A stretch of DNA of 64,000 nucleotides, from the IMG/VR virus record IMGVR_UViG_2795385714_000007. One strand, given 5' to 3'. The position numbers were made by a program, and so were the translations under genes. Shown here piece after piece: positions 2,729 through 52,565 of the stretch. The notes beneath the pieces are model-generated. The model saw only the letters and a program-made list of their open reading frames with translations, had not been told where the DNA came from and ran no database searches. The stretch is from a virus. Its lineage: Duplodnaviria > Heunggongvirae > Uroviricota > Caudoviricetes. The first letter of the stretch is position 1, and every line of letters begins with the position of its first letter.

Positions 2729-4131
2729 TAGACCGGCATGACCTCGACGTACAGCTGGGCGTTGGCCTTGTCGAACAGGTAGGCACCGGCCAGGCCGTCG
2801 TTGTAGAGGTTGACGTAGACGGTGCCCTGGTTGCCGGTGTGGTTGGCGGGCACCAGGGCGTAGGTGTTGTCCGGCGTGATGGCCATGGTGGGGTCCGACG
2901 GCGTCGACGCGTGCGGAGACATGTGTGCCCACTGGGAGGTGTTACCGAAGCCGCGGGCGATGAGTTGGCCGGAGGTGGGGTGTCCCAGCCGCACCTCGCA
3001 GCCGATGATGAGCGGGTCCTGGTCTAGCTCCACACCGGTCGCCTTGATCTTCCCGAAGACAATCGGCTTCCACGGGAATGGTTGCGCGGGAATGGCAAAC
3101 GACCCGATGGGTGCACGGGTGGAGAAGCCCTGGAAGTTGGTGAAGGCAGCTTCGGGCACCGTGAACGGCCTGGGCAGGATCGACCCGATGGACATGGGCC
3201 GCCACTTGCCGGACGCCCCGATGTTCTCGTCGAAGCCCAGAACCTGGAGGTGTTGTGGCGGGGTGGACATATCGACGTCCGGGGCCTGCCCGAGGCTGGC
3301 GGCGGGACCTTGCGGGCCGCGCGGGACCTTCAAGTACAGGCGGCACGACGGCGCGTATGGGGAGCCGGTCTGGTGGACGTAGGAGTCTTGGGCGCCCTCC
3401 GGCGGGAGAAGCTCAACGCTCCAGCTGATCTGGGGCACCGGCCCTGGGGGGCCTTCCGATCCCATCATGAGGATTCGGTATTCGGTGCCGAACCAGATGT
3501 AGGCGCGAGACCCGATGAGGTTGGTGACGCCCTCCTGTTCGGTGGTCACCACCACTGAGGGGCTGGTGCCACCGGTGGGCGTGCCGGTCATCTGTGGCTG
3601 CCCGATACCGGCCTTGGAACCGGCGAAGGTCACCGTGTAGGGGCCGCCGGGGTTGCCGACGACCTCGACGTCGCCGGTGGACACGTTGGGTAGGGCAACG
3701 AGCGCGTCCTCGAATGCCTGGGCGGTGGCGTTACCGGCAATGGATGCGGTCGGCTGGCCGTCGTACGCGATGGTGAAGGAGGTGGGGGCGCCGTTCAGTG
3801 TCACCGTCTGGACCTCGTTGACGGTGGCGTAGTGGTTCATGATCCAGTACTTGCCGATGTCCTCCTCGATGTCCTGGAGGTTGGTCGGCAGGTCCTCGGG
3901 GTCGTCGATCATCGACTTCTGGAGGCGCAGCGCGAAGGCGTTGGTACCGGCCGGACCCTGTGGCCCCATGAGCGCTGGCACTACCAAAGTTGCCTGGTCG
4001 CCTTGGATTTCCATGGTGACCGCGTACTGATCCGGTGTCGCCCCATCGGACACCACGGCGTAGATGTGGGTGTTCGTCAGCAGGGACTTGAGGTACACCA
4101 TCAGGCCGATGGGTGGTACCGGTGAAGTCAT
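2728..4131 (-). CDS. minor tail protein (467 aa) with collagen-like G-x-x stretches
   Basis: GPQGPAG and PPGPVP motifs; position in tail-gene run; stop overlaps next start. Confidence 0.7.
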   Translation of the reverse strand: MTSPVPPIGLMVYLKSLLTNTHIYAVVSDGATPDQYAVTMEIQGDQATLVVPALMGPQGPAGTNAFALRLQKSMIDDPEDLPTNLQDIEEDIGKYWIMNHYATVNEVQTVTLNGAPTSFTIAYDGQPTASIAGNATAQAFEDALVALPNVSTGDVEVVGNPGGPYTVTFAGSKAGIGQPQMTGTPTGGTSPSVVVTTEQEGVTNLIGSRAYIWFGTEYRILMMGSEGPPGPVPQISWSVELLPPEGAQDSYVHQTGSPYAPSCRLYLKVPRGPQGPAASLGQAPDVDMSTPPQHLQVLGFDENIGASGKWRPMSIGSILPRPFTVPEAAFTNFQGFSTRAPIGSFAIPAQPFPWKPIVFGKIKATGVELDQDPLIIGCEVRLGHPTSGQLIARGFGNTSQWAHMSPHASTPSDPTMAITPDNTYALVPANHTGNQGTVYVNLYNDGLAGAYLFDKANAQLYVEVMPV

Positions 4132-6578: not shown

Positions 6579-7592
6579 CTACCGAGACCTCTTATAGCGT
6601 TGCGGCAGTATCGCGGTGATCTTGGCATTGGGGTTGCTGTGCTTGACCCGGATCTGCGCGACGTGCCTGGATGGGACTGATGCTTGGAACCGCTTGTCGA
6701 ATCGCTTCCACACCGGCTCACCGGTGGCTGCCAGGTCGTGCAGTAGGAAGTCCAATATCTTTGAGCGCCTGGCGATCTGGTAGAAGATGTTGTCGACCGG
6801 GTCGTTGGATGCGGTGAGTGTCCGCTCCTTGGGGTCGGTGTCGACGAGGACGTATCCGTCGGATGGGGCGATCAGGGGTAGCTCGACCATGCGTCCGCTG
6901 TCGCCGTCCTCAACCCAGCACCGCCCGGGCGGGACTATGAATTGGGTGTAGGACTCCAGGTCGCCACGGTTGGGCAAGACGATGATGCCTTCGCCGTCGC
7001 CACCGAATTGTGCTGCGGTGGCGGGGTTGTTCTGCCACGTCGCCCAGATGGACGGCTTGCTGTAGTACGGCTTCTGGGCCAGCCACTTCATCGGCCACTT
7101 GGCGAAGTTGTTGCCGAAGGCTACGGGGTCGCGCTTCTGGCTGCCGCCTACGGTCTGGGCGGGCCGGACCCTGATCCATCGCCAGCCGGAGAAGCGGGTG
7201 TAGATGCCGAGCCATCCGTCACGGTTCTCGTCTTGGCCTCGGAACCAGCGGTCCTCAGCCATCCGGTACTGGAAGTTGTTGAACGGCACTCCCTTACCAC
7301 CGATAGAGACGGTGAAGTTGATTTCTCGTTTGAGGATGTTGGCGCGTTCGACGGTTGCCCCAAGCTCATAGGCGCCCTCGGTTAGCAGCAGCTCGAAAGG
7401 CCAGTGGTGCTCGCCCTCAATGTCTTCGGACAGCTGCACGCCCTGACGTCCGGCGTTGACGCCGCCGTACATGTCGGTGAAGTCGCCATCGGGCGAGATG
7501 TGGACTATCCGGGTGTCGAGCCCCTGGAGGGCCTTCGGCAGCTTGTCCCATTGGTCGTAGGCGGGGATCTCGGACTGCCGGATGAACCTCAC
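6579..7592 (-). CDS. minor tail protein (distal tail protein-like, 337 aa)
   Basis: First gene downstream of tape measure; start overlaps TMP stop. Confidence 0.7.
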   Translation of the reverse strand: MRFIRQSEIPAYDQWDKLPKALQGLDTRIVHISPDGDFTDMYGGVNAGRQGVQLSEDIEGEHHWPFELLLTEGAYELGATVERANILKREINFTVSIGGKGVPFNNFQYRMAEDRWFRGQDENRDGWLGIYTRFSGWRWIRVRPAQTVGGSQKRDPVAFGNNFAKWPMKWLAQKPYYSKPSIWATWQNNPATAAQFGGDGEGIIVLPNRGDLESYTQFIVPPGRCWVEDGDSGRMVELPLIAPSDGYVLVDTDPKERTLTASNDPVDNIFYQIARRSKILDFLLHDLAATGEPVWKRFDKRFQASVPSRHVAQIRVKHSNPNAKITAILPQRYKRSR

Positions 7593-25167: not shown

Positions 25168-25607
25168 CAGAACGGCCGATCATCGGCGCGGGGCGCGTGA
25201 TATATGCGGGCGGGCGGACCGTATAGCAGCTCCCGCGGTACCGGGACGTCGTCGAAGACGTACGTGTCGGCCCGGTAGTGCGCGCCGCTGCGGGTCCGGC
25301 CGATGGACAGGAACTGGACCCGGCCGCCGGAGCGGTGTCGGACGGACAGGTCGTTAGCACTGCGGCGGACCCGCTCCAGCACGTCGATGCCCGGTATGAG
25401 ATGGATGTCGACGAGGTTGCGGTGGTGTTCCTGTGCCATGGGCCAGTCCGACGTCTCGTACAGCACGAACCGGCCGCGCCGAAGCTCACCGGCGACGAGG
25501 TCGAGCAGGATGTGCGTCTTGCCGTGCTGGCGGTCGCCGCTGACGGTGACCACGGTGACCTTCGGGCCAGCGACGGCGTCCTGGTGGACCTGCTCTGCGG
25601 TGGTCAT
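25164..25607 (-). CDS. small P-loop NTPase
   Basis: Inner ATG MTTAEQ; Walker A SGDRQHGKT and Walker B-like VFDDV. Confidence 0.5.
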   Translation of the reverse strand: MTTAEQVHQDAVAGPKVTVVTVSGDRQHGKTHILLDLVAGELRRGRFVLYETSDWPMAQEHHRNLVDIHLIPGIDVLERVRRSANDLSVRHRSGGRVQFLSIGRTRSGAHYRADTYVFDDVPVPRELLYGPPARIYHAPRADDRPFW

Positions 25608-25921
25608 GCGTGGTGGTCCTGGATGACGGGCTGGTGGGCGTTGGCGATCGGCTCCCGTGGGACCTCGCGGGCGATGGCTGCGTTGCCCCACATCAGGACT
25701 TCCTCCAGCTTGGTCAACGCGAGGGACTTCTCGCGGCCCGGCGGGAGGATCGAGTCGAGGTCGTGCGCCAGGTCCTTGCATTTCCCGCGGATGCTCTCGT
25801 GTCGGGTGACCTGGTCGACATCGGGTCGGTGGTAGTTGAACCGGTGGTCGATGTCGGCGTGACTGGCGGGGGTGCTGTGGAACATGGCTGGGTCTCCTTG
25901 GAGCCATAGGTTGCAGGTCAT
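25604..25921 (-). CDS. hypothetical protein (His-rich conserved core)
   Basis: Inner ATG MTCNLW with GAGG RBS; HADIDHRFNYHRPD motif; no family assigned. Confidence 0.45.
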   Translation of the reverse strand: MTCNLWLQGDPAMFHSTPASHADIDHRFNYHRPDVDQVTRHESIRGKCKDLAHDLDSILPPGREKSLALTKLEEVLMWGNAAIAREVPREPIANAHQPVIQDHHA

Positions 25922-32895: not shown

Positions 32896-33225
32896 CTAGT
32901 CCTCTCCGGCAGTGTTGGGAGCCTTGATGTTTGGCCAGTAGATGACGGTGCGGCGGCCCATGCTGTCGGTGTAGGTGGGAAGCGACCAAATACGGTCTAC
33001 GAGATCTGCGACGTCATCGTCAGTGTCTGCCAGGACGTAGGCCAGTTCGGCGGTGACCGCGGGAGTGAGGGCGGAGTCGTCGAGTACGACGGCCAGGCAT
33101 TCCTTGCCGTACATGCCTCGCCCGCTGTAGTCCGTTCGTACAGTGGGCAATTCGCCGTCGCCCGCGTAGTTGTTGAGGCTGTCCTCAAAGGAGGTCAGCT
33201 GCTGGGCGGTCAGGGTCTCATTCAT
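32896..33225 (-). CDS. hypothetical acidic protein
   Basis: 109-aa ORF; 16-bp palindrome 10 nt upstream of its ATG. Confidence 0.45.
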   Translation of the reverse strand: MNETLTAQQLTSFEDSLNNYAGDGELPTVRTDYSGRGMYGKECLAVVLDDSALTPAVTAELAYVLADTDDDVADLVDRIWSLPTYTDSMGRRTVIYWPNIKAPNTAGED

Positions 33226-33235
33226 GATATAGACT

Positions 33236-33251
33236 GTATAGTGCGCTATAC
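33236..33251. promoter_or_regulatory. 16-bp palindromic operator GTATAGTGCGCTATAC
   Basis: Perfect inverted repeat; identical copy at 36917..36932; both lie 10 nt upstream of a start codon. Confidence 0.5.
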
Positions 33252-33632: not shown

Positions 33633-35348
33633 CTACAGTCCGGCCGAGAAGTCCGAGATCAGCTGCGGGACAGCCGAGTCGAAACCGGACACGTCCAGCT
33701 GGCCGGGGTCGGCGGGGTCGGCGATGGTGAAGCGGGTTGCCGTCATGCCGACAACGATCAGGCGGGCGTTGATGCCCGTCTTGTTGCGGTAGTCGCGGAG
33801 CGCCTGGTGTGGGTGGACGTCGCCGAACCAGGTTTCGTTGTCGGTGATGACCACGAACGTGTCGAACTCGCGCTTGGACTGCTGTGCCCACAGCATGGGG
33901 AGTGCGCAGTCGGTGGCGCCGAAGCTGAGTCCGGCGGTGTACCGGCACACGTCGTCGAGGCGGCGGCGCGGTGTGATGTCCAGCGGGGTGATGTGGTGCT
34001 GGGACCGGTAGCCGTAGCCCGAGCGCGCGGCCTGTCGTCCGTCGGTGAAGCCGACGACCTCGTGGTCGGGCTCGACGTTGGTGGTGACGAGTGCGAGTGC
34101 GGCTGCGGCCTCGCGGCATGTCAGCGGCATACCTGAGATAACGGCGCCCATGGAGCCGGACACGTCCAGCGCCAGCAGGGTGCGCTTGCCCGACGGCTCT
34201 ACCACGCCGTAGGCGTTGTAGAACGCGGCGTCCAGGGCGTCCACGACCTTGCGTTCCGGCGTCCAGGTGGAGTCGCCGCGCGCCGAATGCCCGGACGCGT
34301 AGGTGCGCTGTGCGATCAGGACGTTGACCGGGTGGACGCGGCCCTTGCGTAGGCGGTCGGCGTCCTGGAGCTGAGCAACGACACGATCCAGATATTCACC
34401 ATGCAGGACCCCATGCCGGGTCAGGCGAGGAAGTTGGCGCATCAATGCGGTCTGCGGCAGACCGTGCTCAATCAGCGCTTCCCACACAGCGGTGAAGTTG
34501 AGCGCGACGTCTGGCAACGCTTCCCAGGGAAGGCCGTTGCCACGTCGAATGATGCTCACCCATTCCTTGGGCTGGGTGGCGCGCTGGGCATCCTCGAAGT
34601 CCTCGATGATCGCCAGGGGGTGGTCAACCACAAGCTCGACGTTAGGCAGCTTGGGCCGGGAGGCATTGCGCTCCCCTGCCTTCAACTGCTCGGCAGTGAG
34701 GGGCTGGACCTTACCGATGTAGTCGTTCAGGCCCTTGCCGACTGCCCAGTTGAAGGCGAGGCGGCGGGCCGGGTCCGCCGTGGTGGGGCCGGACAGGCGT
34801 AGTAGGTCCCGGTGCATCCAGCCTTCGCGCTGTCGGTACTTGACCAGCTGGTAGGCGAGGCGGTCGACGGGCTTGTCGAGGTACCAGCCGCCGACGGCGC
34901 GCTGCATGGCGCGGCCCCACCCGCGGAACTGCTCCATGTACTTGACGAACGTGTAGAGCTGGGTGCCGGTGCGGGCGACCGTGGGCAGGGCTGCTGCTGC
35001 GGCGCGGCGGCCGTCGACGTCCTCTGCTGCGGCGGCGATGGCGAGGGCGAACAGGGCCGGGTTCTGCCGGGGTGCGCGTCCGTCCACAGACACCTCGACG
35101 ATGTGCTGGACGAGGCGGACTGGGTCGGCCGCTGCTGCGCGGAGCACGACGGCCGCTGTTTCCTTGGTGAGGTCGGGGGCGGTGGTGTAGTAGGTGCCGC
35201 CGTCGGTGCCGAGGGTGAGGAAGCGGTGCAGCAGGGCCTCGTCGTCGATGGTGAAGGTGTAGCCACCGGCGGAGTTCTTCACCTGCCGGGGGTCCGCCTG
35301 CTGCGACTGCGGCGTCTTACGGGTTCCGATAGTGGTGAGAACGTCCAC
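33633..35348 (-). CDS. rsr: Ro60-like ribonucleoprotein (TROVE domain + vWA domain), Rsr orthologue
   Basis: 571 aa; N-terminal TROVE/HEAT-like region; C-terminal vWA with MIDAS motif LALDVSGSM; adjacent permuted tRNA-like RNAs. Confidence 0.85.
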   Translation of the reverse strand: MDVLTTIGTRKTPQSQQADPRQVKNSAGGYTFTIDDEALLHRFLTLGTDGGTYYTTAPDLTKETAAVVLRAAAADPVRLVQHIVEVSVDGRAPRQNPALFALAIAAAAEDVDGRRAAAAALPTVARTGTQLYTFVKYMEQFRGWGRAMQRAVGGWYLDKPVDRLAYQLVKYRQREGWMHRDLLRLSGPTTADPARRLAFNWAVGKGLNDYIGKVQPLTAEQLKAGERNASRPKLPNVELVVDHPLAIIEDFEDAQRATQPKEWVSIIRRGNGLPWEALPDVALNFTAVWEALIEHGLPQTALMRQLPRLTRHGVLHGEYLDRVVAQLQDADRLRKGRVHPVNVLIAQRTYASGHSARGDSTWTPERKVVDALDAAFYNAYGVVEPSGKRTLLALDVSGSMGAVISGMPLTCREAAAALALVTTNVEPDHEVVGFTDGRQAARSGYGYRSQHHITPLDITPRRRLDDVCRYTAGLSFGATDCALPMLWAQQSKREFDTFVVITDNETWFGDVHPHQALRDYRNKTGINARLIVVGMTATRFTIADPADPGQLDVSGFDSAVPQLISDFSAGL

Positions 35349-35479
35349 CGTGCATCTCCTTGTTAGAGGGTGCGGGCGGCGCGAACGTGTGAAGGGCGGC
35401 CGGGGTTCGTCATCCTTGCGAGGGGTGGGGTAACCGACTGCGATCCTGCTCGTGCCACCCGCGAGGGCTATTGGGCGGG

Positions 35480-35600
35480 TGATGTGAACGTGTTTGTGCT
35501 GACCGGGATTTCGCTTTTACACCCGCACTGGGTGCGGGCGACAGGGATTGAACCTGCATTAACCAATTGAGTGATAACCGACCGAGCGTCCTGTTCACAT
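35480..35600 (-). ncRNA. YrlA-like Y RNA module 1 (permuted tRNA-like)
   Basis: Minus strand: 9-bp closing stem GATGTGAAC/GTTCACATC; T-arm-like GCAGGTTCAATCCCTG; 7-bp acceptor-like hairpin CCCGCAC-CCA-GTGCGGG capped by a CCA loop. Confidence 0.6.
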
Positions 35601-35619
35601 CGGGTTGTCTGTAGTGCGT

Positions 35620-35775
35620 GCGCGTAGGTGGTGTGGGCGTGTGGGGTGCTGACCGGCGTATGTGGACAATTGCCTCTACCAATTGGGCTACACCCCGCGG
35701 GCGAGGTGGTGGGGCTCGAACCCACACCTGACTGTTTTGGTAACCGACCTGCGTCCTGTCCACACCGCCTGCGCG
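35620..35775 (-). ncRNA. YrlA-like Y RNA module 2
   Basis: T-arm GTGGGTTCGAGCCCCAC then D-arm-like GCCCAATTGGTAGAGGC; flanked by conserved GGTCGGTTACC / CCGGTCAGCAC arms. Confidence 0.55.
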
Positions 35776-35799
35776 CGTGCGTCTGCTGGCGTTTGAGGC

Positions 35800-35940
35800 G
35801 GTGTGAGCGTGTGGGTGTCTGCCGGGGTTAAGCGCTCTAGGCCACTGAGCTACAACCACTTTCGTGGTCGACGGGATTCGAACCCGCGTCTCTCTCGTGA
35901 AAGGAGTTAACCGACTGACGTCCTGTTCACACCGTGCTGC
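35800..35940 (-). ncRNA. YrlA-like Y RNA module 3
   Basis: T-arm CGGGTTCGAATCCCG; acceptor stem CGACCAC-GAAA-GTGGTTG; canonical D-arm TAGCTCAGTGGCCTAGAGCGC; T-arm/3' acceptor strand precedes 5' acceptor/D-arm. Confidence 0.65.
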
Positions 35941-35964
35941 GTCTATGGAGTTGTGTCAGGGGGC

Positions 35965-36115
35965 CGCGACCGTGTGTGTGCCGACCGGTGTTTTAGGCGC
36001 TCTGCCAGGCTGAGCTACCCCGGACATGTGATGCCGGGGGCAGGATTTGAACCTGCGACCTCCCGCTCCGAATGCGATAACCGACCATGCGTCCTGGTCG
36101 CACCCTGATGCGTAT
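35965..36115 (-). ncRNA. YrlA-like Y RNA module 4
   Basis: T-arm GCAGGTTCAAATCCTGC; hairpin CCCCGG-(10 nt)-CCGGGG; D-arm TAGCTCAGCCTGGCAGAGCGCC. Confidence 0.6.
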
Positions 36116-36139
36116 ATGGAGTTGTGTTGGGTGATGGGG

Positions 36140-36280
36140 CGAACGTGTGTGTGCTGACCGGGGTTTAGCGCTCTGCCAACTGAGCTACAGCCGGGGGCTG
36201 GCTGGCGGGACTCGAACCCGCGACCTCTCCATTACAAGTGGTAACCGACCTGCGTCCTGCTCGCACCATCTGGTGTCTAT
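36140..36280 (-). ncRNA. YrlA-like Y RNA module 5
   Basis: T-arm CGGGTTCGAGTCCCG; D-arm TAGCTCAGTTGGCAGAGCGC; same conserved flanking arms. Confidence 0.6.
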
Positions 36281-36298
36281 GTAGTTGTGGTCTGGGGG

Positions 36299-36418
36299 AC
36301 GACGTGAACGTGGTTGGCGCTGGGCGGGTTTGGCTCCATTTCCCCGCTTGGCTCGGGGCGTTCTAACTTGAACTACGGGGGCGTACCCCGAGATAACCGA
36401 CCTGCATTCTGTTCACGT
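36299..36418 (-). ncRNA. divergent Y RNA-like module 6
   Basis: Same 9-bp closing stem (GACGTGAAC/GTTCACGTC) and GGTCGGTTATC arm, but the internal domain is two GC hairpins rather than a tRNA-like T/D pair. Confidence 0.4.
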
Positions 36419-36446
36419 CGTCCGTTGTTTTGTTGTCTGAAAACGA

Positions 36447-36464
36447 AGCTATACCGCGGTATAG
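36447..36464. promoter_or_regulatory. 18-bp palindrome GCTATACCGCGGTATAGC
   Basis: Perfect inverted repeat using the same TATAG/CTATA half-sites in swapped order; lies just upstream (on the minus strand) of the Y RNA array. Confidence 0.4.
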
Positions 36465-36519
36465 CGGTGCTGCAACAGGATTGAGGCTTGTCTGTATAGC
36501 CGCTCGGTAGCCGCGACCA

Positions 36520-36858
36520 TCACCGTCCGGCGCCAGCTCCTCCGCTCGCCGAGGAACCACCGCTACTAGCAGACCCGCTACCAGCGCTGTTACCTCCAGT
36601 TTCGCCCGCGCCAGGACCTGCCGGAGCTGTAGATGAACGGTGCTGGCCCTCAGGGCATTCCGGGTCCTCCGGGGGTTTGTATCCGCCGCCACCCGCTGGC
36701 GTGAAGGGTGCCGGTCGGGCGCCCAGGCAGGTCTTAGCGTCTGTCGCGGCATACAGGCAACGGTCGGGGAACGCGGAGGCGGTCGCAGTTGGGAGCACCG
36801 TTAGGGCCGCGATGGCGGCACCGATGACGGCAATACGTTTTACATAAAGGTTTTTCAT
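36520..36858 (-). CDS. secreted protein with Gly/Ser-rich C-terminus
   Basis: Inner ATG MKNLYVKRIAVIGAAIAALTVLPTATASA = signal peptide with AXA site; N-terminal codons unusually AT-rich for this genome; GTATAG-N4-GTATAC motif 8 nt upstream. Confidence 0.5.
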   Translation of the reverse strand: MKNLYVKRIAVIGAAIAALTVLPTATASAFPDRCLYAATDAKTCLGARPAPFTPAGGGGYKPPEDPECPEGQHRSSTAPAGPGAGETGGNSAGSGSASSGGSSASGGAGAGR

Positions 36859-36868
36859 GACTCGGAAC

Positions 36869-36887
36869 GTATACAGAACTATACATA
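36869..36887. promoter_or_regulatory. operator-like repeat GTATACAGAACTATACA in divergent promoter region
   Basis: Between minus-strand gene start 36858 and plus-strand gene start 36943. Confidence 0.4.
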
Positions 36888-36916
36888 GAAGCAAGGTCGT
36901 TAAGGCTTGTCCTTTC

Positions 36917-36932
36917 GTATAGTGCGCTATAC
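36917..36932. promoter_or_regulatory. 16-bp palindromic operator GTATAGTGCGCTATAC (second copy)
   Basis: Identical to the site at 33236..33251; 10 nt upstream of ATG 36943; no SD, so leaderless promoter/operator likely. Confidence 0.5.
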
Positions 36933-36942
36933 ATTCTGAGTC

Positions 36943-37194
36943 ATGGCAAGAGTGATACTCACAGCGAAAGCGCGGATGCGCGCCAACAAGCGCCGCGTCA
37001 CGTCGGCACTCCGCAACGCAGGTATGCCGCTCCTCGTCGACAACCGCGACGGCATCTGGCGCCTCTACTTCATCGGCACCGACGACACCGGTGTCGAGCT
37101 GGAGCTGATCCTGGTCCCACACGCCACCCAGGACTGGACCTGGGTATGTATCCACGCCATGCCCACCAAGTACCGGAAAGGAGGGGCACAATGA
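36943..37194 (+). CDS. BrnT-like (RelE-fold, DUF497-like) toxin candidate
   Basis: 83 aa; RLYFIGTDDTGVELELILVPHATQDWTWVCIHAMPT resembles the BrnT core (R..IG...G.L.VV......IRIISAR); plus strand in a minus-strand genome. Confidence 0.45.
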   Translation: MARVILTAKARMRANKRRVTSALRNAGMPLLVDNRDGIWRLYFIGTDDTGVELELILVPHATQDWTWVCIHAMPTKYRKGGAQ

Positions 37195-37394
37195 CCCTCA
37201 TGAGCAGTCACAGCGAAGCCGACCTCAAGCGCCTCACCTTCGGCGATGACCTGGTCGTCGACGACATCGACCTCGACAAGGAAGAGTTCCTTGTCGGCGA
37301 CGGAGTCCGGCTGACCAACGAAGCGGCCGACAAGCTCGCAGCCGAAACCCTAGCCGAGGTCGAACGGCGAAACATCCAGGCAGAGAAAGGCTAG
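37191..37394 (+). CDS. small acidic antitoxin-like protein (BrnA/RHH-like C-terminus)
   Basis: 67 aa; ATGA overlap with toxin gene; GGAGG RBS; C-terminal GVRLTNEAADKLAAETL is consistent with a ribbon-helix-helix. Confidence 0.4.
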   Translation: MTLMSSHSEADLKRLTFGDDLVVDDIDLDKEEFLVGDGVRLTNEAADKLAAETLAEVERRNIQAEKG

Positions 37395-37398
37395 CCAG

Positions 37399-37560
37399 AT
37401 GGACGCGGTATACGTAGTAGATACAGGCAGCGAAGAGATCTACGTTATCGCTGACCACGAATGCGCCGCGGCCGAGAAAGCGGCGGCGATGGTCGGTCAC
37501 GAGGTCAACTACGCCGAGCACTATTCGGACGATCTAGACGATATGCCCGGGACGGACTAA
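37399..37560 (+). CDS. small acidic protein (53 aa)
   Basis: ATG 4 nt after previous stop; not in ORF track (<60 aa). Confidence 0.3.
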   Translation: MDAVYVVDTGSEEIYVIADHECAAAEKAAAMVGHEVNYAEHYSDDLDDMPGTD

Positions 37561-37994
37561 CCAGGGGTGCTTCGGACTGCCATCACTCGGCTGTACCAGC
37601 GTGCCTCTTCCTCGGGTGTGGTCGGCGCTGGCGGGTCGTTGTTCCGCATGTAGCGTTCCCACGCGGAACGGCGGCGGGTCTCGGCGTGGTGTTTCTCAGC
37701 GGCCTTGCGGGCGGCGCGTAGGTCGTTGCCGCAGTAGAGGTCCCGGGATGACGGAATAGCGTCCCAGTCGCGCGAGCCGGGCACGTATTCAGTGATCCAG
37801 CAGCGTTTAACGACCTCGGTGGTGGTGTTGGTTGACGGGTCCCAGAGGCGGTACTCCGTTGTCCGCGGCAACAGGGTGTACGTCCCGCCGATGTCGTCGC
37901 GGTGGTGGGCGACCCACAACCAGCGGACCTTGTGCCAACGATCCTCGATGCGTTTCCATGCCAGGGTCACGTCAACGAAGGCGATGCCGGTCAT
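37557..37994 (-). CDS. hypothetical protein
   Basis: 145-aa ORF; its stop converges on the plus-strand island. Confidence 0.45.
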   Translation of the reverse strand: MTGIAFVDVTLAWKRIEDRWHKVRWLWVAHHRDDIGGTYTLLPRTTEYRLWDPSTNTTTEVVKRCWITEYVPGSRDWDAIPSSRDLYCGNDLRAARKAAEKHHAETRRRSAWERYMRNNDPPAPTTPEEEARWYSRVMAVRSTPG

Positions 37995-38335
37995 GATGTT
38001 CCGCCATTCTGGGGTGCGGCGATTGCCGCTGCGGTCATGCTCTTGACCTCTGCCATGTACCGCTCAAACCGCAGGCGCTGGGCTTTCTCGTAGGGGCGTT
38101 CTACACGTTGGGTTGGCCAGTCGGGCTCCATAATGCGGCGTTGGGCCTCGTCCTCGGCGGCGTCCATCACGCCGGTGATCCACCTGCCGTCGTTGATCAG
38201 TGGCCGGGCGTCGGCGGGCAGCGTCTCCACTGTCTCGCGGCCGTTCGTGGAGGGTACGCATTTGTAGAAGCCACCCCAGTTGTCGAGCTGCCAGAAGATC
38301 TGGCCGGACGGGGTTGCCCATAGTTCCCAGATCAT
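37991..38335 (-). CDS. hypothetical protein
   Basis: Inner ATG MIWELWATPSG at ATGA overlap. Confidence 0.45.
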   Translation of the reverse strand: MIWELWATPSGQIFWQLDNWGGFYKCVPSTNGRETVETLPADARPLINDGRWITGVMDAAEDEAQRRIMEPDWPTQRVERPYEKAQRLRFERYMAEVKSMTAAAIAAPQNGGTS

Positions 38336-39548: not shown

Positions 39549-40597
39549 CAGTTACCGCCCGCCGGGGTGGTCTGCCGCTGCTCGGGTGTCTGGTGCGGTA
39601 CCAGCCCGTCGTTGAGTATCGCGGTCACCTTGTCGACGACCAGTCGTCCGGCGCCCGCCTCGTCCAGCAGCGGCTCGTCGGCGACACGCTGGACCATGTC
39701 GTTGATGCCGTCGAGGCGCCAGTATGCCTCGGCTAGTAGGTGTTTGAGTTGGTCGAGTAGTTGCATGTTTTTCTCCCGTTCTTCGAGTTCGCGCATGAGG
39801 TCGATGACGCCGCGCTGGAGCCAGGGGTATTCCCGTTCGCCATATGTTCGGCCGCAGGTGGTGCAGTCGTATTGGGAGGTGCCGTCCCAGCGGCCGACGG
39901 TGTAGGCGCCGCACTGCTGGCCGTCCCGTTTGACTGCGGGGCAGGGCATGGCGGAGTGGTGGCGTAGTCGGGGTAGTCCGAGGGCCTGGTAGACGTTGCG
40001 GGACAGCTCGATTAGTTGGAGGGCGATGTCGACGCCGTCGCGGTCTACGAGGTGGCGGGGTTGTCCGTGCTGGGGATGCCAGCCCTCGTCGCCGTCGGGT
40101 ACTCGGCCCCAGACGAGCATGGGTTGGGCGGGTTGAGCCAGGAGTACGTCCAGGTTTTCGCCGACGACGGCGACGGAACGGGCGACTACCTGACGTTGGT
40201 GGACGGTGAAGCCCTGGCGGCCGTGGCGCTGCCTGCCGGTCAGGTTCATCGCGTGTTCAACCATTTCCGCTGCGCGGTCGGCGGTCTCGACGATGTCGCG
40301 TTGGAGAGCGTCGCGTTGGGTGTTGAGGTTGATGGCTGCGGTAGAGGTCATGGTGACGCGTGCTCGGTCGACGTACACGCGTTCGCCGATGCCTTCGTGG
40401 AGCCGGTCCCAGTCCCGGGGTAGGCCGTTGACGGCGTACCGCAGGCGGGTTAGGCAGCCGCCGCAGATCACACCGTCGGCAATGAGTTGGCCGGAGGGTG
40501 CGTCATCTTCGTCGACGACGGTTGACCAGTCGTGGTTTACGCATCGGTGTCCGAACGCGCAGCGGTGCGGATCACGTTGCGTCACAGGGTTACTCAT
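39548..40597 (-). CDS. hypothetical protein with multiple zinc-finger motifs (350 aa)
   Basis: Inner ATG MSNPVTQRD; several CxxC/HxxC clusters. Confidence 0.45.
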   Translation of the reverse strand: MSNPVTQRDPHRCAFGHRCVNHDWSTVVDEDDAPSGQLIADGVICGGCLTRLRYAVNGLPRDWDRLHEGIGERVYVDRARVTMTSTAAINLNTQRDALQRDIVETADRAAEMVEHAMNLTGRQRHGRQGFTVHQRQVVARSVAVVGENLDVLLAQPAQPMLVWGRVPDGDEGWHPQHGQPRHLVDRDGVDIALQLIELSRNVYQALGLPRLRHHSAMPCPAVKRDGQQCGAYTVGRWDGTSQYDCTTCGRTYGEREYPWLQRGVIDLMRELEEREKNMQLLDQLKHLLAEAYWRLDGINDMVQRVADEPLLDEAGAGRLVVDKVTAILNDGLVPHQTPEQRQTTPAGGN

Positions 40598-47642: not shown

Positions 47643-48427
47643 CGGTTTACGTCGCCGTCTACGTCGCTGTGCACGTGCTCGATGGCCTTGTTGGGGTCTG
47701 CGGTGCGCCAGTCGGGCCACGTGCGTTGCTCGTTCCTGGTCTGCTTCGCAAGGATCGCGTCGATGATCTGTTGCGGTTCCCAGCCCGCGCGCCAGGCTCC
47801 GTCGAAGGCCAGGATGATGACGTCTACCCATTCGGAGATGTCGTCAGGGGCGTCCCGTATCTCGTTCAGCTCTTTGCCGATGTGGTCCAAGACTCCGTTG
47901 GTTCGGGCACCCGGGCCGAAGGTTGCGAGGCTGAATGCACGCTGTCGCGCCAGGTGTGCTGCGTCTATTACGCGGGTGGGTGACGTGCCCGGTCGCTGCT
48001 GTTCGTCCACCGTTGTGGGCTCACCGCACCCAGCCGCCCCGAACTCGTCCCATGGGATAAACCGGTCTACTTCGAAGACCTCACCGCGCCGCACGCGCAT
48101 ACGGTCGATGGCGTTGTCGACGTTGGTTTCATCCGCGCGGTCTTTGCACCAGAACCCCCAAAGGCGTACCCGCCGCCCTGTCACGATGAGTGTCCAGCAC
48201 GGGAGCTTGCGCTGATCGCGGCGCGCGAGGAACTGATTTGAGTGCGTCGCGGCCGGTACCAACTCCACGCGGTGCCGCCATGTGCCTCGCCGGAATGCCA
48301 GCGGCCGGTCGCCCCAGAAGAAGCGCCACGGCTCCGGGGCGGACCTGACGGACCGACCCTCCTCAGTGACCTCCACGACTGGGGAAGTACACGTATTCGA
48401 TATGTGCGCTATTCCGGTAGGGATCAT
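47639..48427 (-). CDS. MazG-like dATP/dGTP pyrophosphohydrolase domain protein
   Basis: C-terminal EWVDVIILAFDGAWRAGWEPQQIIDAILAKQTRNEQRTW resembles phage MazG-like/DUF550 core. Confidence 0.55.
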   Translation of the reverse strand: MIPTGIAHISNTCTSPVVEVTEEGRSVRSAPEPWRFFWGDRPLAFRRGTWRHRVELVPAATHSNQFLARRDQRKLPCWTLIVTGRRVRLWGFWCKDRADETNVDNAIDRMRVRRGEVFEVDRFIPWDEFGAAGCGEPTTVDEQQRPGTSPTRVIDAAHLARQRAFSLATFGPGARTNGVLDHIGKELNEIRDAPDDISEWVDVIILAFDGAWRAGWEPQQIIDAILAKQTRNEQRTWPDWRTADPNKAIEHVHSDVDGDVNR

Positions 48428-50724
48428 GGCTGGACCGCCTTCGACTGGCGGATGTGTTCTGTTGCTTCGAGGTATGCCGCCCAGCTGTTCTGTGCGTATT
48501 CAGCCCATCGATAGGCAGTGGATGGCGCGATGCCGAACAGGTCTGTCATGACTGGGGGTGGCAGCGTCGAGGCCGAGGCGATCATCGCGGCGTTGCGTGC
48601 GTGGATGACGGGGAGGCCGTAGCGGGTCAGTCGCTGCTGCAGCGATCTTGGATGGATGGGCCTGCTCGGTGGTCGCCCGGGGAACAGGTATCGCGGGATC
48701 TCATCAGAAGCGTTGTGCACCATACTGCTTACGGATCGTCGTTCGATGAGCTGTTCAATGAGCCGCGCTAGAGATGGCGGCAGGAGAACGGGATTGCGGT
48801 CGAAAGTGATGAAGGATCCGTGTTCGTCTGCGTGGTAGCGATCGGTGGTGAGTTCGATCATCCGGACGGTCATCGGCGCGTAGAGCCGGATCAGTGCTCC
48901 CGCAACGCGGACTTCCAGTGGGAGTGTTTCGTCAGTGAGGCATCGGCGAAGCTGCTGGTGCAGTTCGTCTTCGGGCAGCAGTCGTGACGGTGGTCCGGTG
49001 GGCCGCGATGGGACGGTGAGGGCGGCGCCGGCCAGGCGCTGTTTGGTCAACCACTTCGCGAAGACGACCAGGTGTTTTTGCGAGGTTGGGTTGGCGGCGA
49101 GCCACTCCTCGAGGTGCGGCTGTCCGATGGCCTCGAGCGAGTATTGCTTCTGGTCGATCCAGTCGAGAAAATCGATCGCGGTAAGGATCTTGGCGCGGTC
49201 GGAGGCGGCAGCACCGTCGGTGTAGTTGCGGCGTCGCGATCGCGCCCGGGCGTCACGGACGACTCTCCATTCAGCGAACGGTCGGATGATCCGGGCTTGG
49301 TGGCTGGGCAGCGCGGCGGTCGTGCGCGTCGCCCACAGCATCAGTTGTGTCAGCTGTTCAGGGCGCGAAGGCAATACCCCTGTTGCGACGAGTAGTTGCC
49401 GAATGTAGCGGGTGGCTCCGTCCTGGTTGAGGTCATCGAGCAGTTCGTGGGTGATCGGCTGCTGATCGGCGACCAGGCCGGCCAGCAGCCGCGAGGACTT
49501 GCCGACGCGTAGCCAGGTGAGGATCGAATTGGGGTGGGCCGTGGCGAGGGCGTCGACGAGCGGTTGCAGCTGTGTAGGGACCTGTCCGGTGTCGTCGCTG
49601 AGCAAGTCAGTGACACGGCTGGCGGCCACGCATCGAGCGCATTTACCGGCGCTGTAGTGCATGCCTTCGGCCCCGCAGGTTTTGCAGGCGAAGTCGAGGT
49701 CGGCGCCCGAGCATGCAGTGCAGATCTCTTTGCCGTCGGTGTTCAAGCCGACCATGACCGCGGTGCGTTGGCACGTTGCGCAGGTTGTTGGGTTGTGCAG
49801 GCGCCGCTGGTAGCAGCTTCGACAGATGGTGCCCAGTGGCCATGTGGCGCAGGCGGTGCCGTACTCACCGCAGTAGTGGCAGTGGCGAGGACGCATCGGC
49901 CAGCAGGAGATGCAGTGAAACGGGCCGCCGCGGTATTTTCCTCCAGCTCGGGTTCGCCCGCAGGCGACACATTCGCCGATGTTTCGGTAGCAGCGTCGGC
50001 AGATGTCTGGGGTGGTGTCTGTTGCCCGGGCCTGTATTTCGTTGATCTCGCCGCATAGTCCGCATCGTCGTGCTGGTGTGCTGTAGCAGGCCCGGCAAAG
50101 CGGGCCTTCGGCGGTGAGGGCATGGGTCTGGCGGGTTTGGCCGCACTGGCTGCATTGTCGCGGCGGCGGCAGGCTGCATCCCTGACACAGCACCGTGCCG
50201 TCGGCGCGTCGAACATTGGGCGGGCGGGTCCGGCCGCAGCCGGCGCACTGTTGAAGGAACTCGGGATCGTTGTTGTAGCAGCGTCGGCAGATCGCTCCTT
50301 CTTTGCGGCGTGCCGTGAGGAGACCGGGCTCGCCGCAGCGCGCGCAGGGCCGTCGGTCGTTCTTTATCGCGCACCAGTTGCAGCAGCGGCCCTCGGGGCT
50401 GGTGCGGCGCAGCCGCACGTCGGTTCGGCCGCATCGAGCGCAGCCCAGCAGCGTCACCGAATCGGCGTATCCGTTGGCGGCCAACAGTTGCAGTAGCGCT
50501 GGTAGCGACGCGGGCCCTGCGTGAGTGGGTGCAGTGAACGCGTCAGCGTTCTCGGCGAGGTGCCGCTGCAGCTCGGCGACCCGCCCGCGGGAGTTCCACG
50601 CCTTCGCCTCGATCAGGAACTGCTGAGCGCGATCGCGCGGCATCTGCGGGTCGATGGCATCGACCACTTTTCTCACGAGGGCTTCGCGGGCTTCGTCCAG
50701 CGACAAGTTGGCTGTGGTGGTCAT
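48424..50724 (-). CDS. multi-zinc-ribbon protein fused to a divergent tyrosine recombinase-like domain (766 aa)
   Basis: 8-9 tandem C-x2-C...C-x2-C units in N-terminal half; C-terminal half has a core-binding-like segment (ATRYIRQLLVATGVLP), a catalytic-like segment (HPRSLQQRLTRYG...HARNAA...STAYRW) and a candidate Tyr; coupled (ATGA) at both ends. Confidence 0.55.
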   Translation of the reverse strand: MTTTANLSLDEAREALVRKVVDAIDPQMPRDRAQQFLIEAKAWNSRGRVAELQRHLAENADAFTAPTHAGPASLPALLQLLAANGYADSVTLLGCARCGRTDVRLRRTSPEGRCCNWCAIKNDRRPCARCGEPGLLTARRKEGAICRRCYNNDPEFLQQCAGCGRTRPPNVRRADGTVLCQGCSLPPPRQCSQCGQTRQTHALTAEGPLCRACYSTPARRCGLCGEINEIQARATDTTPDICRRCYRNIGECVACGRTRAGGKYRGGPFHCISCWPMRPRHCHYCGEYGTACATWPLGTICRSCYQRRLHNPTTCATCQRTAVMVGLNTDGKEICTACSGADLDFACKTCGAEGMHYSAGKCARCVAASRVTDLLSDDTGQVPTQLQPLVDALATAHPNSILTWLRVGKSSRLLAGLVADQQPITHELLDDLNQDGATRYIRQLLVATGVLPSRPEQLTQLMLWATRTTAALPSHQARIIRPFAEWRVVRDARARSRRRNYTDGAAASDRAKILTAIDFLDWIDQKQYSLEAIGQPHLEEWLAANPTSQKHLVVFAKWLTKQRLAGAALTVPSRPTGPPSRLLPEDELHQQLRRCLTDETLPLEVRVAGALIRLYAPMTVRMIELTTDRYHADEHGSFITFDRNPVLLPPSLARLIEQLIERRSVSSMVHNASDEIPRYLFPGRPPSRPIHPRSLQQRLTRYGLPVIHARNAAMIASASTLPPPVMTDLFGIAPSTAYRWAEYAQNSWAAYLEATEHIRQSKAVQP

Positions 50725-51056
50725 GACCGGCCTGGTCTGCGCACGATGGAACGTTTCGGCACCACGGGCGGCGCCGATGGCGCTGCGCCGGTGCCGTCGG
50801 CGGTCTTTCGGGCCGATCCGGCCACGACTTCGGGAACGATGAGATCGTTGGGTGTGCATCCCAAGATGTCGCACAAGGCGACGAGGGTGTCCATGCTCAG
50901 CCGTTGTGGTGGTTGGGTCACCAGCCGATAGACCTGCTCCCGCGACAGCGTGATGCCGCGCTCCACCAGGTGCGGAATCAGGTCCGATGTTTGAAACATG
51001 TCCTGCTCAGCCATCAGGGCCCGAAGTCGCCACTGAAACGTCATCTTCTTCGTCAT
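50721..51056 (-). CDS. Xre-like helix-turn-helix protein
   Basis: 111 aa; SREQVYRLVTQPPQRLSMDTLVALCDILGCTPNDL; ATGA overlaps on both sides. Confidence 0.6.
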   Translation of the reverse strand: MTKKMTFQWRLRALMAEQDMFQTSDLIPHLVERGITLSREQVYRLVTQPPQRLSMDTLVALCDILGCTPNDLIVPEVVAGSARKTADGTGAAPSAPPVVPKRSIVRRPGRS

Positions 51057-52171
51057 TGGCTCACTCCATCCCAGTGCTGGCCCAGGCGCCCCAGCAGGGA
51101 CGCTTTGAGCAGTTCGTTGCGGTACTCGTTGGTCACGTGGGTGTAGATCGATGTCGTCGAGGCATGGGCGTGGCCCACTTGCTCCTGGACAAACCTTGGT
51201 GGATAACCGAATTCGGTCCAATGAGTCACTGCCGAGTGACGAAGGCAATGCGGCGTGAGCACCGGATCGAGCCCAGCGTCATTGCGGGCAGCCACGAAGG
51301 CCTCGTTGATCGAGCGCGGGGAAAGCCGCCCACCACGTTCGGTCACCCACAAAGCCGGATACCGCTCGGGCAGACCGAACCGTGGCCGAATCTCGTCCAC
51401 CCACTGCGCAAGCGTGTCGACAATCCAATCCATCTCCGGGACGAGAAGCACACTGCGGCGCTTGGTCGCCGAACCCTTTGACGGCTTGCCGTGCCGCACC
51501 GTCACCACGCCGAACCCTCTGAACTCAGGGGCCAGCTTGTTCGAATGCAGATCTCCGATATCGAGTCGCGAGGCCTCGGTGCGTCGAAGTCCAAACGCGT
51601 ACAGCGTCTTTAAGACTGCCGCATCCCGAGCGGCGCCCAATGCCCCCTTCACGCCGCGCTCCCTGATCGTCGCGACCCGTCCGTCGGCGGCGTCGAACAA
51701 TGCCTGCACTTCGTCGTAGTTGAGTGGCCGACGCCCAGGATCGGACTCGTTCTCGACCCGGTGCTGAACGGAGTTTCCCTCGTGGAAAATCTGCTGAGGC
51801 GCCTGACCGAACTGCTCAAGGCATACGGTGACCCAGTCATAGCGCGGATCCAGCAGATACTCGACGAACAAGGTGATCGCGATCTCGTAGGACCGCGCTG
51901 TCGACACCGCTTTCACCGTCGTCGACCGCAAATGATCGATGAACGCCTCCCCCTCTGCCGGCGTCCACTGCCACGGATACAGGCCGGTGAACTCCTCCAA
52001 CCGGCGCATCAATGCGAGCCGCGACCCGATCGTTCCCGCCCGCAGAAACCGCGACGACTGTTGTCTTCGCCAGCCTTCGAGCATCGCCGAGAACACCGCT
52101 GCGGGAGGGTCCAGAGGAACCACGTTCTGCGCCAACATCAACCGCGCCGATCCCGGCGCCAAATCCGTCAC
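51053..52171 (-). CDS. int: tyrosine integrase/recombinase
   Basis: 372 aa; GLRRTEASRL, HCLRHSAVTHW and GHAHASTTSIYTHV (R-H-R-H-Y) motifs; GTG start. Confidence 0.85.
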   Translation of the reverse strand: MTDLAPGSARLMLAQNVVPLDPPAAVFSAMLEGWRRQQSSRFLRAGTIGSRLALMRRLEEFTGLYPWQWTPAEGEAFIDHLRSTTVKAVSTARSYEIAITLFVEYLLDPRYDWVTVCLEQFGQAPQQIFHEGNSVQHRVENESDPGRRPLNYDEVQALFDAADGRVATIRERGVKGALGAARDAAVLKTLYAFGLRRTEASRLDIGDLHSNKLAPEFRGFGVVTVRHGKPSKGSATKRRSVLLVPEMDWIVDTLAQWVDEIRPRFGLPERYPALWVTERGGRLSPRSINEAFVAARNDAGLDPVLTPHCLRHSAVTHWTEFGYPPRFVQEQVGHAHASTTSIYTHVTNEYRNELLKASLLGRLGQHWDGVSQ

Positions 52172-52178
52172 CGACCTG

Positions 52179-52193
52179 TTGTATCAGATGCAA
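52179..52193. promoter_or_regulatory. palindrome TTGTATCAGATGCAA 8 nt upstream of integrase start
   Basis: Near-perfect inverted repeat; second perfect copy 129 bp away. Confidence 0.45.
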
Positions 52194-52307
52194 CGATGAT
52201 GCGTTGGATTCAAGGCCGCAGGTCAAGGCCGTGTCAGCGCGGTCGACTAGAAGGCAGTCACGCCGGCCAACCAGCACCGTAGAGTGATCCTCAGACCGTG
52301 CCGAATG

Positions 52308-52322
52308 TTGCATCAGATGCAA
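52308..52322. promoter_or_regulatory. palindrome TTGCATCAGATGCAA (perfect copy)
   Basis: TTGCATC-A-GATGCAA. Confidence 0.45.
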
Positions 52323-52565
52323 TTCCGCGCATTTGTACTGCCCCCACAACATCAGGGAGACGAACCACCAGGGGTGGTCGTGCAGGGCGCGGTCGTCGTC
52401 GTCACGCAGGAACTTGTGTAGGTAGATGTTGAGCCACCGGTTGCGCGGGATTACGTACCAGCGCAATAGGTACGGCGCCTCGCCTTCGGCGCCGATGGGT
52501 TGATGCGGTTCCAGGCGCAACCACTTGCGCAGCAAGTGGTGGTTGTTGGGGCCGGTGGCGGTCAT
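52322..52565 (-). CDS. hypothetical protein (C-terminal end uncertain)
   Basis: MTATGPNNHHLLRKWLRLEP...LHDHPWW; ATGA-coupled to upstream gene; the frame stays open to 51837 across the palindrome and integrase start, so true stop or frameshift unclear. Confidence 0.3.

Follow-up and report, generated by a model that had tools for sequence, protein, structure and literature searches.

A putative type II toxin-antitoxin pair with a shortened antitoxin on the opposite strand of a MabK prophage

A stretch of 64,000 nucleotides from a virus of the class Caudoviricetes (IMG/VR record IMGVR_UViG_2795385714_000007; this whole stretch is hereafter called the window) carries, at about 37 kb, three small plus-strand genes (genes 1 to 3) in a genome otherwise read from the minus strand, and a gene for a secreted protein that diverges from them. 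The question raised by this locus is what the opposite-strand genes encode, how they are expressed, and whether they are recent arrivals. On balance, we consider it probable that genes 1 and 2 make up a type II toxin-antitoxin (TA) pair that is resident in prophage cluster MabK and whose actinobacterial lineage has BrnT-BrnA and RelS of Mycobacterium tuberculosis among its relatives. The island DNA (36300-37700) is 95.5% identical to that of Mycobacterium phage prophiT37-1 and 93.3% identical to that of prophiGD43A-5, both prophages of Mycobacterium abscessus in cluster MabK, to which the window likewise belongs, and by Megablast the window corresponds approximately to the reverse complement of positions 465-62,490 of the prophiT37-1 record. 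The counterpart of gene 1 is labelled "BrnT-like toxin" in both records, the gene following it in prophiGD43A-5 is labelled "antitoxin," and prophiGD43A-5 has been listed among the prophages with an opposite-strand TA inside the early lytic genes (Dedrick et al. mBio 2021, PMC8092301); thus, the core of the finding is not new. The element is of a known kind, and what is modestly new is the link to RelS, an antitoxin apparently trimmed of its ribbon-helix-helix (RHH) domain, an overlooked gene for a predicted secreted protein, and a common palindromic motif with a putative promoter role.

The opposite-strand genes and the toxin-antitoxin pair

The island comprises the following genes (aa, amino acids).

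36943-37194, plus strand: gene 1, putative toxin; 83 aa, pI 10.3, start taken as the ATG at 36943
37191-37394, plus strand: gene 2, putative antitoxin; 67 aa, pI 4.3
37399-37560, plus strand: gene 3, small acidic ORFan; 53 aa, pI 4.05
36520-36858, minus strand: secreted-protein gene (export predicted), divergent from gene 1; 112 aa

Genes 1 and 2 have the anatomy of a type II TA: two small genes with a 4-nt overlap, ATGA at 37191-37194, in which the gene for a basic toxin comes first and that for an acidic antitoxin second. A Shine-Dalgarno (SD) sequence, AGGAGG, lies at 37179-37184 and ends 6 nt ahead of the gene 2 ATG. The initial annotation had described an acidic, ATGA-coupled gene 2 with a good ribosome-binding site, a gene 3 encoding an acidic protein of 53 aa, and a divergent signal-peptide protein with AT-rich first codons (the first ten codons are 33% GC), and all of these features are present. 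Its statement that the 64 kb contain no other plus-strand genes is also supported as far as it could be tested, both by a survey of third-codon-position GC content (GC3) in each frame and by mapping onto the annotated prophiT37-1. The remaining plus-strand open reading frames (ORFs) with coding-like GC3 are all antisense to a longer minus-strand ORF, and the least shadowed of them (25278-25835 and 40016-40423) fall inside forward-annotated prophiT37-1 genes. prophiT37-1 itself has one more opposite-strand gene (gene 60), in a segment that is replaced in the window. At the far end of the island, the stop codons of gene 3 and of a convergent 145-aa minus-strand gene overlap at 37557-37560, and no terminator was found after gene 3 and before the 145-aa gene, so that island transcription must enter this lytic-direction gene. 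The four island proteins gave nothing useful against Pfam, NCBIfam, and PADLOC, a search of a viral fold library gave no match, and an Rfam scan of the island found no riboswitch or small RNA, the sub-threshold hits nhaA-I and Ysr141 looking like noise.

Gene 1 has a RelE/RNase T1-like fold to which BrnT is nearest, and it matches a PHROGs family labelled "toxin" (3.6e-34). A word-indexed protein search yielded 5 relatives and an exhaustive profile search 123, of which about 9 were long multi-repeat proteins matched on a short beta-hairpin stretch; these were treated as spurious and kept out of the family alignment (A3), which holds 74 sequences. The profile of these 74 matches a single solved structure, 9sdc_C (RelS), with an E value of 1.3e-7 and 34.5 bits over RelS residues 2-58, whereas the single sequence gave no relevant match in the PDB and a profile of 8 sequences reached only an E value of 0.34 against RelS. 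RelS is a RelE/BrnT-like RNase and a proven toxin that cuts the anti-SD region of 16S rRNA between C1520 and U1521, and its toxicity is severely affected by the substitutions K9A, H10A, and H64A (PMC13284704). Fold and family-level homology together place gene 1 in the RelE superfamily, beside BrnT and RelS. The BrnT/RelE-fold-like core first proposed for gene 1 therefore stands as regards a RelE-type fold nearest to BrnT and the RelS match, and does not extend to membership of the Pfam family BrnT_toxin: PF04365 was matched by none of the 74 family members at an E value of ≤0.01. Gene 1 retains a basic surface, and its H71, the equivalent of RelS H64 in the HAM motif, is kept in 73 of the 74. 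The RelS C terminus could not be aligned to gene 1, and no equivalents of R69 and K71 were assigned. A precedent at the level of annotation is gene 86 of phage Waterfoul, likewise labelled as a BrnT-like toxin, which is toxic in Mycobacterium smegmatis (PMC9339283). The annotated starts of two MabK toxin genes (L001, position 6644; L002, position 6652) look wrong, being 3 codons past the conserved ATG (MAR[IV]...).

The close homologues of gene 2 are only Mycobacteroides proteins of 61-67 aa, always at the same prophage position behind the 83-aa gene, and its PHROGs match is a family of unknown function. Longer relatives occur at the toxin-homologue loci of Gordonia soli, M. crassicus, Agromyces, and several metagenome-assembled genomes, in which the toxin homologue overlaps by 4 nt with a downstream gene that encodes 107-127 aa, or as many as 191 aa in the reading of one locus (L018). 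About 55 N-terminal residues of these long antitoxins align with gene 2; against the 107-aa antitoxin of locus L016, identity is 60% over 47 residues (L016 residues 7-53), with a BLASTP E value of 7e-17 from one single pairwise comparison. The long homologues carry a C-terminal RHH domain, seen as RHH_1 matches of 28.9 and 25.4 bits (cutoff, 20.5) and weak CopG_antitoxin matches, and RHH_1 exceeds its cutoff solely in them and not in gene 2. Gene 2 ends exactly at the boundary of the homologues between RRN(I/L) and VPGGKS ("LVPGGKS...RHH"), where the RHH domain begins, and no RHH remnant was found in the whole window, including the DNA downstream of gene 2. The RHH-like C terminus that the initial annotation had seen in gene 2 is thus withdrawn, as there is no RHH profile match and, in alignments with the longer homologues, the segment falls N-terminal to their true RHH. 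Judged by these alignments, gene 2 is an apparent mini-antitoxin that consists of the N-module only and has lost the C-terminal RHH. An AlphaFold2 model of gene 2 (predicted local distance difference test [pLDDT] score, 57) has a disordered N terminus, a hairpin, and one helix, and a mostly disordered makeup is typical of toxin-binding antitoxin segments. When gene 2 was compared by phmmer with every PDB chain, the RelI chains of 9SDC among them, nothing was returned at an E value of ≤10. No DNA-binding domain was detectable in gene 2 by profiles, by the model, or by homologue alignment, and without an RHH, classical autorepression by the TA complex is not possible.

Toxin and antitoxin N-module are co-inherited in Gordonia, Mycobacterium, Agromyces, and the Gordonia phages Eyre and PhrostedPhlake. 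When IMG/VR was probed with the flanking 145-aa gene, which avoids selecting on the island itself, 9 relatives were obtained, and toxin, antitoxin, and secreted ORF were together present in 8 of them. In L034 (IMGVR_UViG_2795385756_000001), a clean 1,165-bp deletion equivalent to window positions 36691-37855 takes half of the secreted gene, the promoter region, the toxin, the antitoxin, gene 3, and the 3' end of the 145-aa gene, so that toxin and antitoxin are lost together. In L006 (M. abscessus CP014951.1), an IS110-family transposase at 2056-3550 lies inside the toxin gene, and the antitoxin and downstream genes are intact. Purifying selection on all three is indicated by their ratios of nonsynonymous to synonymous polymorphism (pN/pS): gene 1, 0.16-0.32; gene 2, 0.23-0.27; secreted ORF, 0.13-0.23. 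The island had been read initially as a horizontally acquired cassette, and the initial annotation had itself named ordinary codon usage together with conservation in all relatives as evidence that would tell against this view, a pattern to which the TA pair largely conforms. GC3 is ordinary for genes 1 and 2 (0.80 and 0.79, versus 0.82±0.05 for the genome) and drops to 0.70 in gene 3 and, far outside the norm, to 0.58 in the secreted ORF (0.41 in its Gly/Ser tail). Given this ordinary GC3, and the retention of both genes in all but one of the 9 relatives, the TA pair does not look like a foreign cassette of recent acquisition, and the cassette view survives for gene 3, the other downstream cargo, and the low-GC3 secreted ORF, which are moron-like.

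Indeed, the genes that follow the antitoxin vary from relative to relative: 111+83+83 aa, 111+102+67 aa, 111 aa alone, none, or gene 3. Within the set of annotated MabK phage records and loci retrieved with a gene 2 probe, gene 3 is confined to prophiT37-1; two IMG/VR relatives (L026 and L027) carry it too, and copies with 82-83% identity lie in MabJ and MabI prophages, with which variable downstream cargo is held in common, away from any TA. Gene 3 is therefore mobile or variable cargo outside the TA pair, and the pair is a stable MabK resident of which only the 3' slot acts as a swap site.

The divergent gene and the palindromic motif

The secreted ORF encodes a Sec-type signal peptide ending in ASA (with F following), a conserved core with three cysteines, and a Gly/Ser/Ala-rich tail. 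No annotation lies under its tblastn match in either phage record, no gene has been called at its site in the assemblies examined, and no homologue was found in a set of 5.8 billion proteins or in plasmids. The possibility that it is a noncoding artifact, suggested by a GC content higher at second than at third codon positions, was ruled out by the pattern of substitutions: variable sites fall at the three codon positions as 10/5/33, and all 9 copies keep an uninterrupted reading frame, even where they differ by an indel, which is of 9 nt and in frame. The core, FPDRC...CPEGQH, is almost invariant. On the strength of the codon-position pattern and the in-frame indel, we regard it as a genuine, overlooked gene for a small protein with predicted export. 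It lies on the strand of the lytic genes and yet has a start region of its own, in which the following palindromes, and related elements elsewhere, were located.

36917-36932, plus strand: 16-bp palindrome GTATAGTGCGCTATAC, exact, 10 nt 5' of the toxin ATG, overlapping a -10-like TACATT
36869-36884, minus strand: palindrome copy GTATAGTTCTGTATAC, with 1 mismatch, 10 nt 5' of the secreted-gene ATG
33236-33251, minus strand: third palindrome copy, exact, GTATAGTGCGCTATAC as read on the plus strand, 10 nt 5' of an SD-less ATG at 33225
36448-36465, minus strand: hairpin GCTATAC-CGCG-GTATAGC with a T-rich run behind it, located between the secreted gene and a Y-RNA array
Outside the window: palindromes in 5' regions of accessory genes, at 38024, 42191, and 42647 of prophiT37-1 (L004) and at 7102, 11201, and 11657 of prophiGD43A-5 (L025)

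With up to 2 mismatches allowed, GTATAG-N4-CTATAC occurs three times in the window (0, 1, and 0 mismatches) versus 0.31 expected, a count reached in none of 100 shuffles, and the inverse order, CTATAC-CGCG-GTATAG, occurs once, at 36449-36464. The divergent region is 84 bp long and nearly symmetric; an inverted repeat, I1 (36856-36884 versus 36917-36945; 29 nt, 83% complementary), takes in both ATGs, each ATG has at a distance of 7 nt on its 5' side a hexamer of the form TANNNT (TACATT or TACGTT), and there is no SD between palindrome and ATG at either divergent start. The half-sites of the palindrome at 36917-36932 are invariant in 9 relatives, one spacer base differing in one copy, and the palindrome at 36869-36884 is likewise conserved in relatives. 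The palindromes that the initial annotation saw as operators framing the island do exist, without framing it in this manner: two lie 10 nt 5' of the divergent ATGs, and the third is a terminator-like hairpin. This hairpin, at 36448-36465, was found by a terminator scan, folds as RNA with -12.2 kcal/mol (z, -1.85), has a 14-nt core (TATACCGCGGTATA) that is identical across all relatives, and more likely serves as a weak terminator that separates the secreted gene from the Y-RNA array.

The position of the palindrome, 10 nt from starts that lack an SD, suggests leaderless promoters. A scan for the sigma-70 consensus found no promoter, a result that is expected given that mycobacterial promoters may consist of a -10 element only. 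The toxin homologues of Gordonia phage Eyre (TTGACT-18-TATACT-AGAGTC-ATG) and M. crassicus (TTGACA...CATACT-CGATAC-ATG) also have a -10 hexamer 6 nt 5' of the ATG, with a -35 element before it and no SD, and a leaderless toxin mRNA thus appears to be a family trait. The annotated start of Eyre gene 31 (L023, position 1965) looks wrong, the gene having been extended upstream through what is apparently its own -35/-10 promoter.

The copy at 33236-33251 precedes a 109-aa gene of unknown function (32896-33225, minus strand) amid the string of lytic-direction genes, which suggests a putative internal promoter under separate control. The copies outside the window sit in the right arm of prophiT37-1 and prophiGD43A-5, and one of them occupies the divergent region upstream of gene 113, leading into WXG/polymorphic-toxin/immunity genes; these genes are reported to be expressed in lysogeny (PMC8092301). 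The ORF beside the middle outside palindrome is annotated on opposite strands in the two records, as gene 107 (plus) and as gene 114 (minus). Neither the left early arm nor the repressor-excise region contains the palindrome, and its absence between the repressor and excise genes of prophiT37-1 was the ground for provisionally rejecting the immunity repressor as the palindrome-binding protein. The occurrence of the same motif at other accessory genes points to a common trans-acting regulator, which cannot be the antitoxin, since this has no DNA-binding domain. It is plausible that the palindrome is a common promoter and putative operator of a set of accessory genes.

Mechanism, alternative readings, and neighboring elements

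If genes 1 and 2 are a TA pair, the toxin would be a small basic RNase of the RelE fold acting on the ribosome or rRNA, and by homology to RelS its target would most likely be the 3' end (anti-SD) of 16S rRNA. The antitoxin would be an acidic, largely disordered peptide made through tight coupling to the toxin gene (ATGA plus the strong SD), and its N-module, which contains DIDLDKEE, would most likely mask the toxin's basic face in the way that RelI masks RelS with its acidic α1 helix. The operon transcript may be leaderless, starting at the toxin ATG from a -10 element inside the 16-bp palindrome, and the same motif would drive the divergent secreted-protein gene and at least four other prophage accessory genes. 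Control would then be exerted in trans through the palindrome by a separate regulator and not by the antitoxin. The role of the pair may be abortive-infection defense from the prophage, prophage stabilization, or both.

Several observations weigh against this reading. Gene 1 matches no Pfam family at an E value of ≤1, and hence not PF04365, and scans of genes 1 and 2 against Pfam, NCBIfam, and PADLOC were without a match. The positions of RelS K9 and H10 are occupied by M12 and R13 in gene 1, so that catalysis may be altered or weakened, and this replacement of the K/H pair is the main doubt about the mechanism. Besides, the antitoxin model, at its pLDDT of 57, is of low confidence, the leaderless start and the operator role are predictions from sequence, and most of prophiGD43A-5 outside the polymorphic toxin-immunity (PT-Imm) locus is transcriptionally silent (Dedrick 2021, PMC8092301).

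The replaced pair could mean that the system has decayed or been attenuated to an RNase-dead toxin with half an antitoxin, which would persist as a harmless remnant or as an anti-addiction mini-antitoxin against related toxins of the host or of competing elements. Alanine substitutions at K9 and H10 abolish RelS toxicity, the antitoxin has lost its RHH, L006 carries IS110 in the toxin gene beside an intact antitoxin, and L034 has lost the whole island without obvious harm, all of which would fit such decay. However, both genes are under purifying selection (pN/pS of about 0.2), H71 and the basic surface are retained, and the retained translational coupling argues that the toxin still needs neutralizing. 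In the family column at RelS H10, H is found in 52 of 74 sequences and R in 11, and R marks the subclade that holds the window, a cross-genus subclade that as a whole still keeps its cognate antitoxin. Active sites of the RelE superfamily are, moreover, notoriously variable, and we regard decay as unlikely, if still deserving attention. Much less credible is that the plus-strand genes and the secreted protein are morons for lysogenic conversion or superinfection exclusion and no TA at all, gene 1 being an RNA-binding or regulatory protein. As to signals of its own, the island has a promoter-like palindrome with a -10 element at both divergent starts, only a weak hairpin after the secreted gene, and no terminator after gene 3. 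In favor of morons, the content of the 3' cargo slot changes greatly from one relative to another, gene 3 is mobile across prophage clusters, the secreted ORF is atypical in its GC3 and without homologues, and the common promoter motif ties these genes to other accessory genes. Gene 1 nevertheless groups by fold and profile with proven toxins, gene 2 shares homology with the N-module of RHH antitoxins whose genes invariably come after that of the toxin, and the TA genes have ordinary codon usage and are nearly always present as a pair.

As for the motif, the 16-bp palindromes might not be protein-binding operators and instead be a by-product of back-to-back -10 elements or of an inverted duplication of the two 5' regions, since the right half-site overlaps the TANNNT hexamer at each site and both island palindromes lie inside the 29-nt inverted duplication. 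We think this less likely than not: the half-sites are invariant and the 4-nt spacer variable, both between sites and between relatives, the motif recurs at six dispersed loci, some of them unidirectional with leaders of 35-45 nt, and its center-to-center spacing of 10 bp fits a dimeric DNA-binding protein. A more elaborate scheme is highly speculative, and we would not expect it to hold. By removing or damaging the 16S anti-SD, the toxin would leave leaderless mRNAs (those of the toxin itself, the secreted protein, and two accessory genes) translatable while the antitoxin, dependent on a strong SD and on coupled translation, fails, which would make a self-locking switch of a leaderless regulon, with a TetR-like/helix-turn-helix (HTH) protein by the integrase as the candidate regulator binding GTATAG-N4-CTATAC.

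Two neighboring features lie outside the TA pair. The DNA at 35400-36420 (minus strand) holds about six tandem tRNA-like/Y-RNA-like modules with a period of about 165 nt, directly upstream, in the order of transcription, of a Ro60/TROVE orthologue on the same strand (33633-35348). Four of the modules have sub-threshold Rfam matches to YrlA (26-38 bits, versus a gathering score of 69), and ARAGORN calls one as tRNA-Thr(tgt), which is the only tRNA that the GenBank relatives annotate there. YrlA-like RNAs beside mycobacteriophage Ro genes are known (PMC4201824). Farther on, at 48381-52335, an insertion of about 4 kb relative to prophiT37-1, with all genes on the minus strand, encodes a tyrosine recombinase (Phage_integrase, 2e-22), a Cro/C1-type HTH protein, and an 816-aa Cys-rich ORF without a Pfam match, and is probably a small mobile element within the prophage.

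M. abscessus is a drug-refractory pathogen whose prophages shape its fitness and its susceptibility to phage therapy. The TA pair is already published and current understanding is not overturned; the link from the MabK toxin to RelS makes anti-SD cleavage of 16S rRNA a concrete, checkable mechanism. The RHH-less antitoxin is a natural experiment that would mark the minimal neutralizing module, with regulation uncoupled from neutralization. The secreted peptide is a candidate lysogenic-conversion factor missed by current gene callers, and the common palindrome suggests a regulon of prophage accessory genes.

Comparison with known systems

Related pairs are found at the following loci.

prophiGD43A-5 genes 50/49 and prophiT37-1 genes 47/46: the same TA locus in relatives, with 93-95% DNA identity
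Eyre gp31/gp30 and PhrostedPhlake gp39/gp38: pairs of Gordonia phages, annotated BrnT/BrnA, with chromosomal copies in Gordonia soli, M. crassicus, and Agromyces

The records of prophiT37-1 and prophiGD43A-5 differ from our description in that they start the toxin 3 codons later than the conserved ATG chosen here, leave the secreted ORF and the Y-RNA array unannotated, and are silent on the loss of the antitoxin RHH and on the common palindrome.

RelS-RelI of M. tuberculosis (Rv2663-Rv2664, PDB 9SDC; Han et al., NAR 2026, PMC13284704) resembles the MabK pair in having a basic RelE/RNase T1-fold toxin of about 80 aa, the toxin gene first, and the His of the HAM motif (RelS H64, H71 here), and neither RelI nor gene 2 has evident DNA-binding activity. 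It differs in its antitoxin, RelI being an 85-aa, ClpC2-like helical protein unrelated to gene 2, and in the K9/H10 pair, which is M12/R13 here; besides, the MabK pair has a prophage setting and a predicted RNA target. BrnT-BrnA (Brucella abortus, PDB 3U97; PF04365 plus PF12441; Salmonella, 7VD7) shares the order of toxin gene and overlapping downstream antitoxin gene, and BrnT has the nearest fold. Unlike it, gene 1 is without a PF04365 match and lacks the conserved Lys/His pair, the residues equivalent to RelS K9/H10 being important for BrnT, and gene 2 is without the RHH that BrnA-type antitoxins carry C-terminally for DNA binding and dimerization. Autorepression through the antitoxin, a generic trait of type II systems, is likewise not to be looked for in gene 2, which has no DNA-binding domain.

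Counterparts also occur as pairs of Gordonia phages and of Gordonia soli, M. crassicus, and Agromyces chromosomes. Their toxins are true homologues of gene 1, with 55-65% identity in Gordonia and M. crassicus, and the phage and chromosomal pairs share with the MabK pair the SD-less, apparently leaderless start of the toxin gene and the antitoxin N-module motif DIDL..E..RLT.E.A. Their antitoxins differ in length (102-127 aa) and in carrying a C-terminal RHH. In Eyre and PhrostedPhlake, the toxin homologue is followed by a gene of 102-104 aa annotated as an RHH DNA-binding protein (the Eyre note reads BrnA antitoxin), and the module lies near the integrase, whereas the MabK version is RHH-less and lies among early lytic genes.

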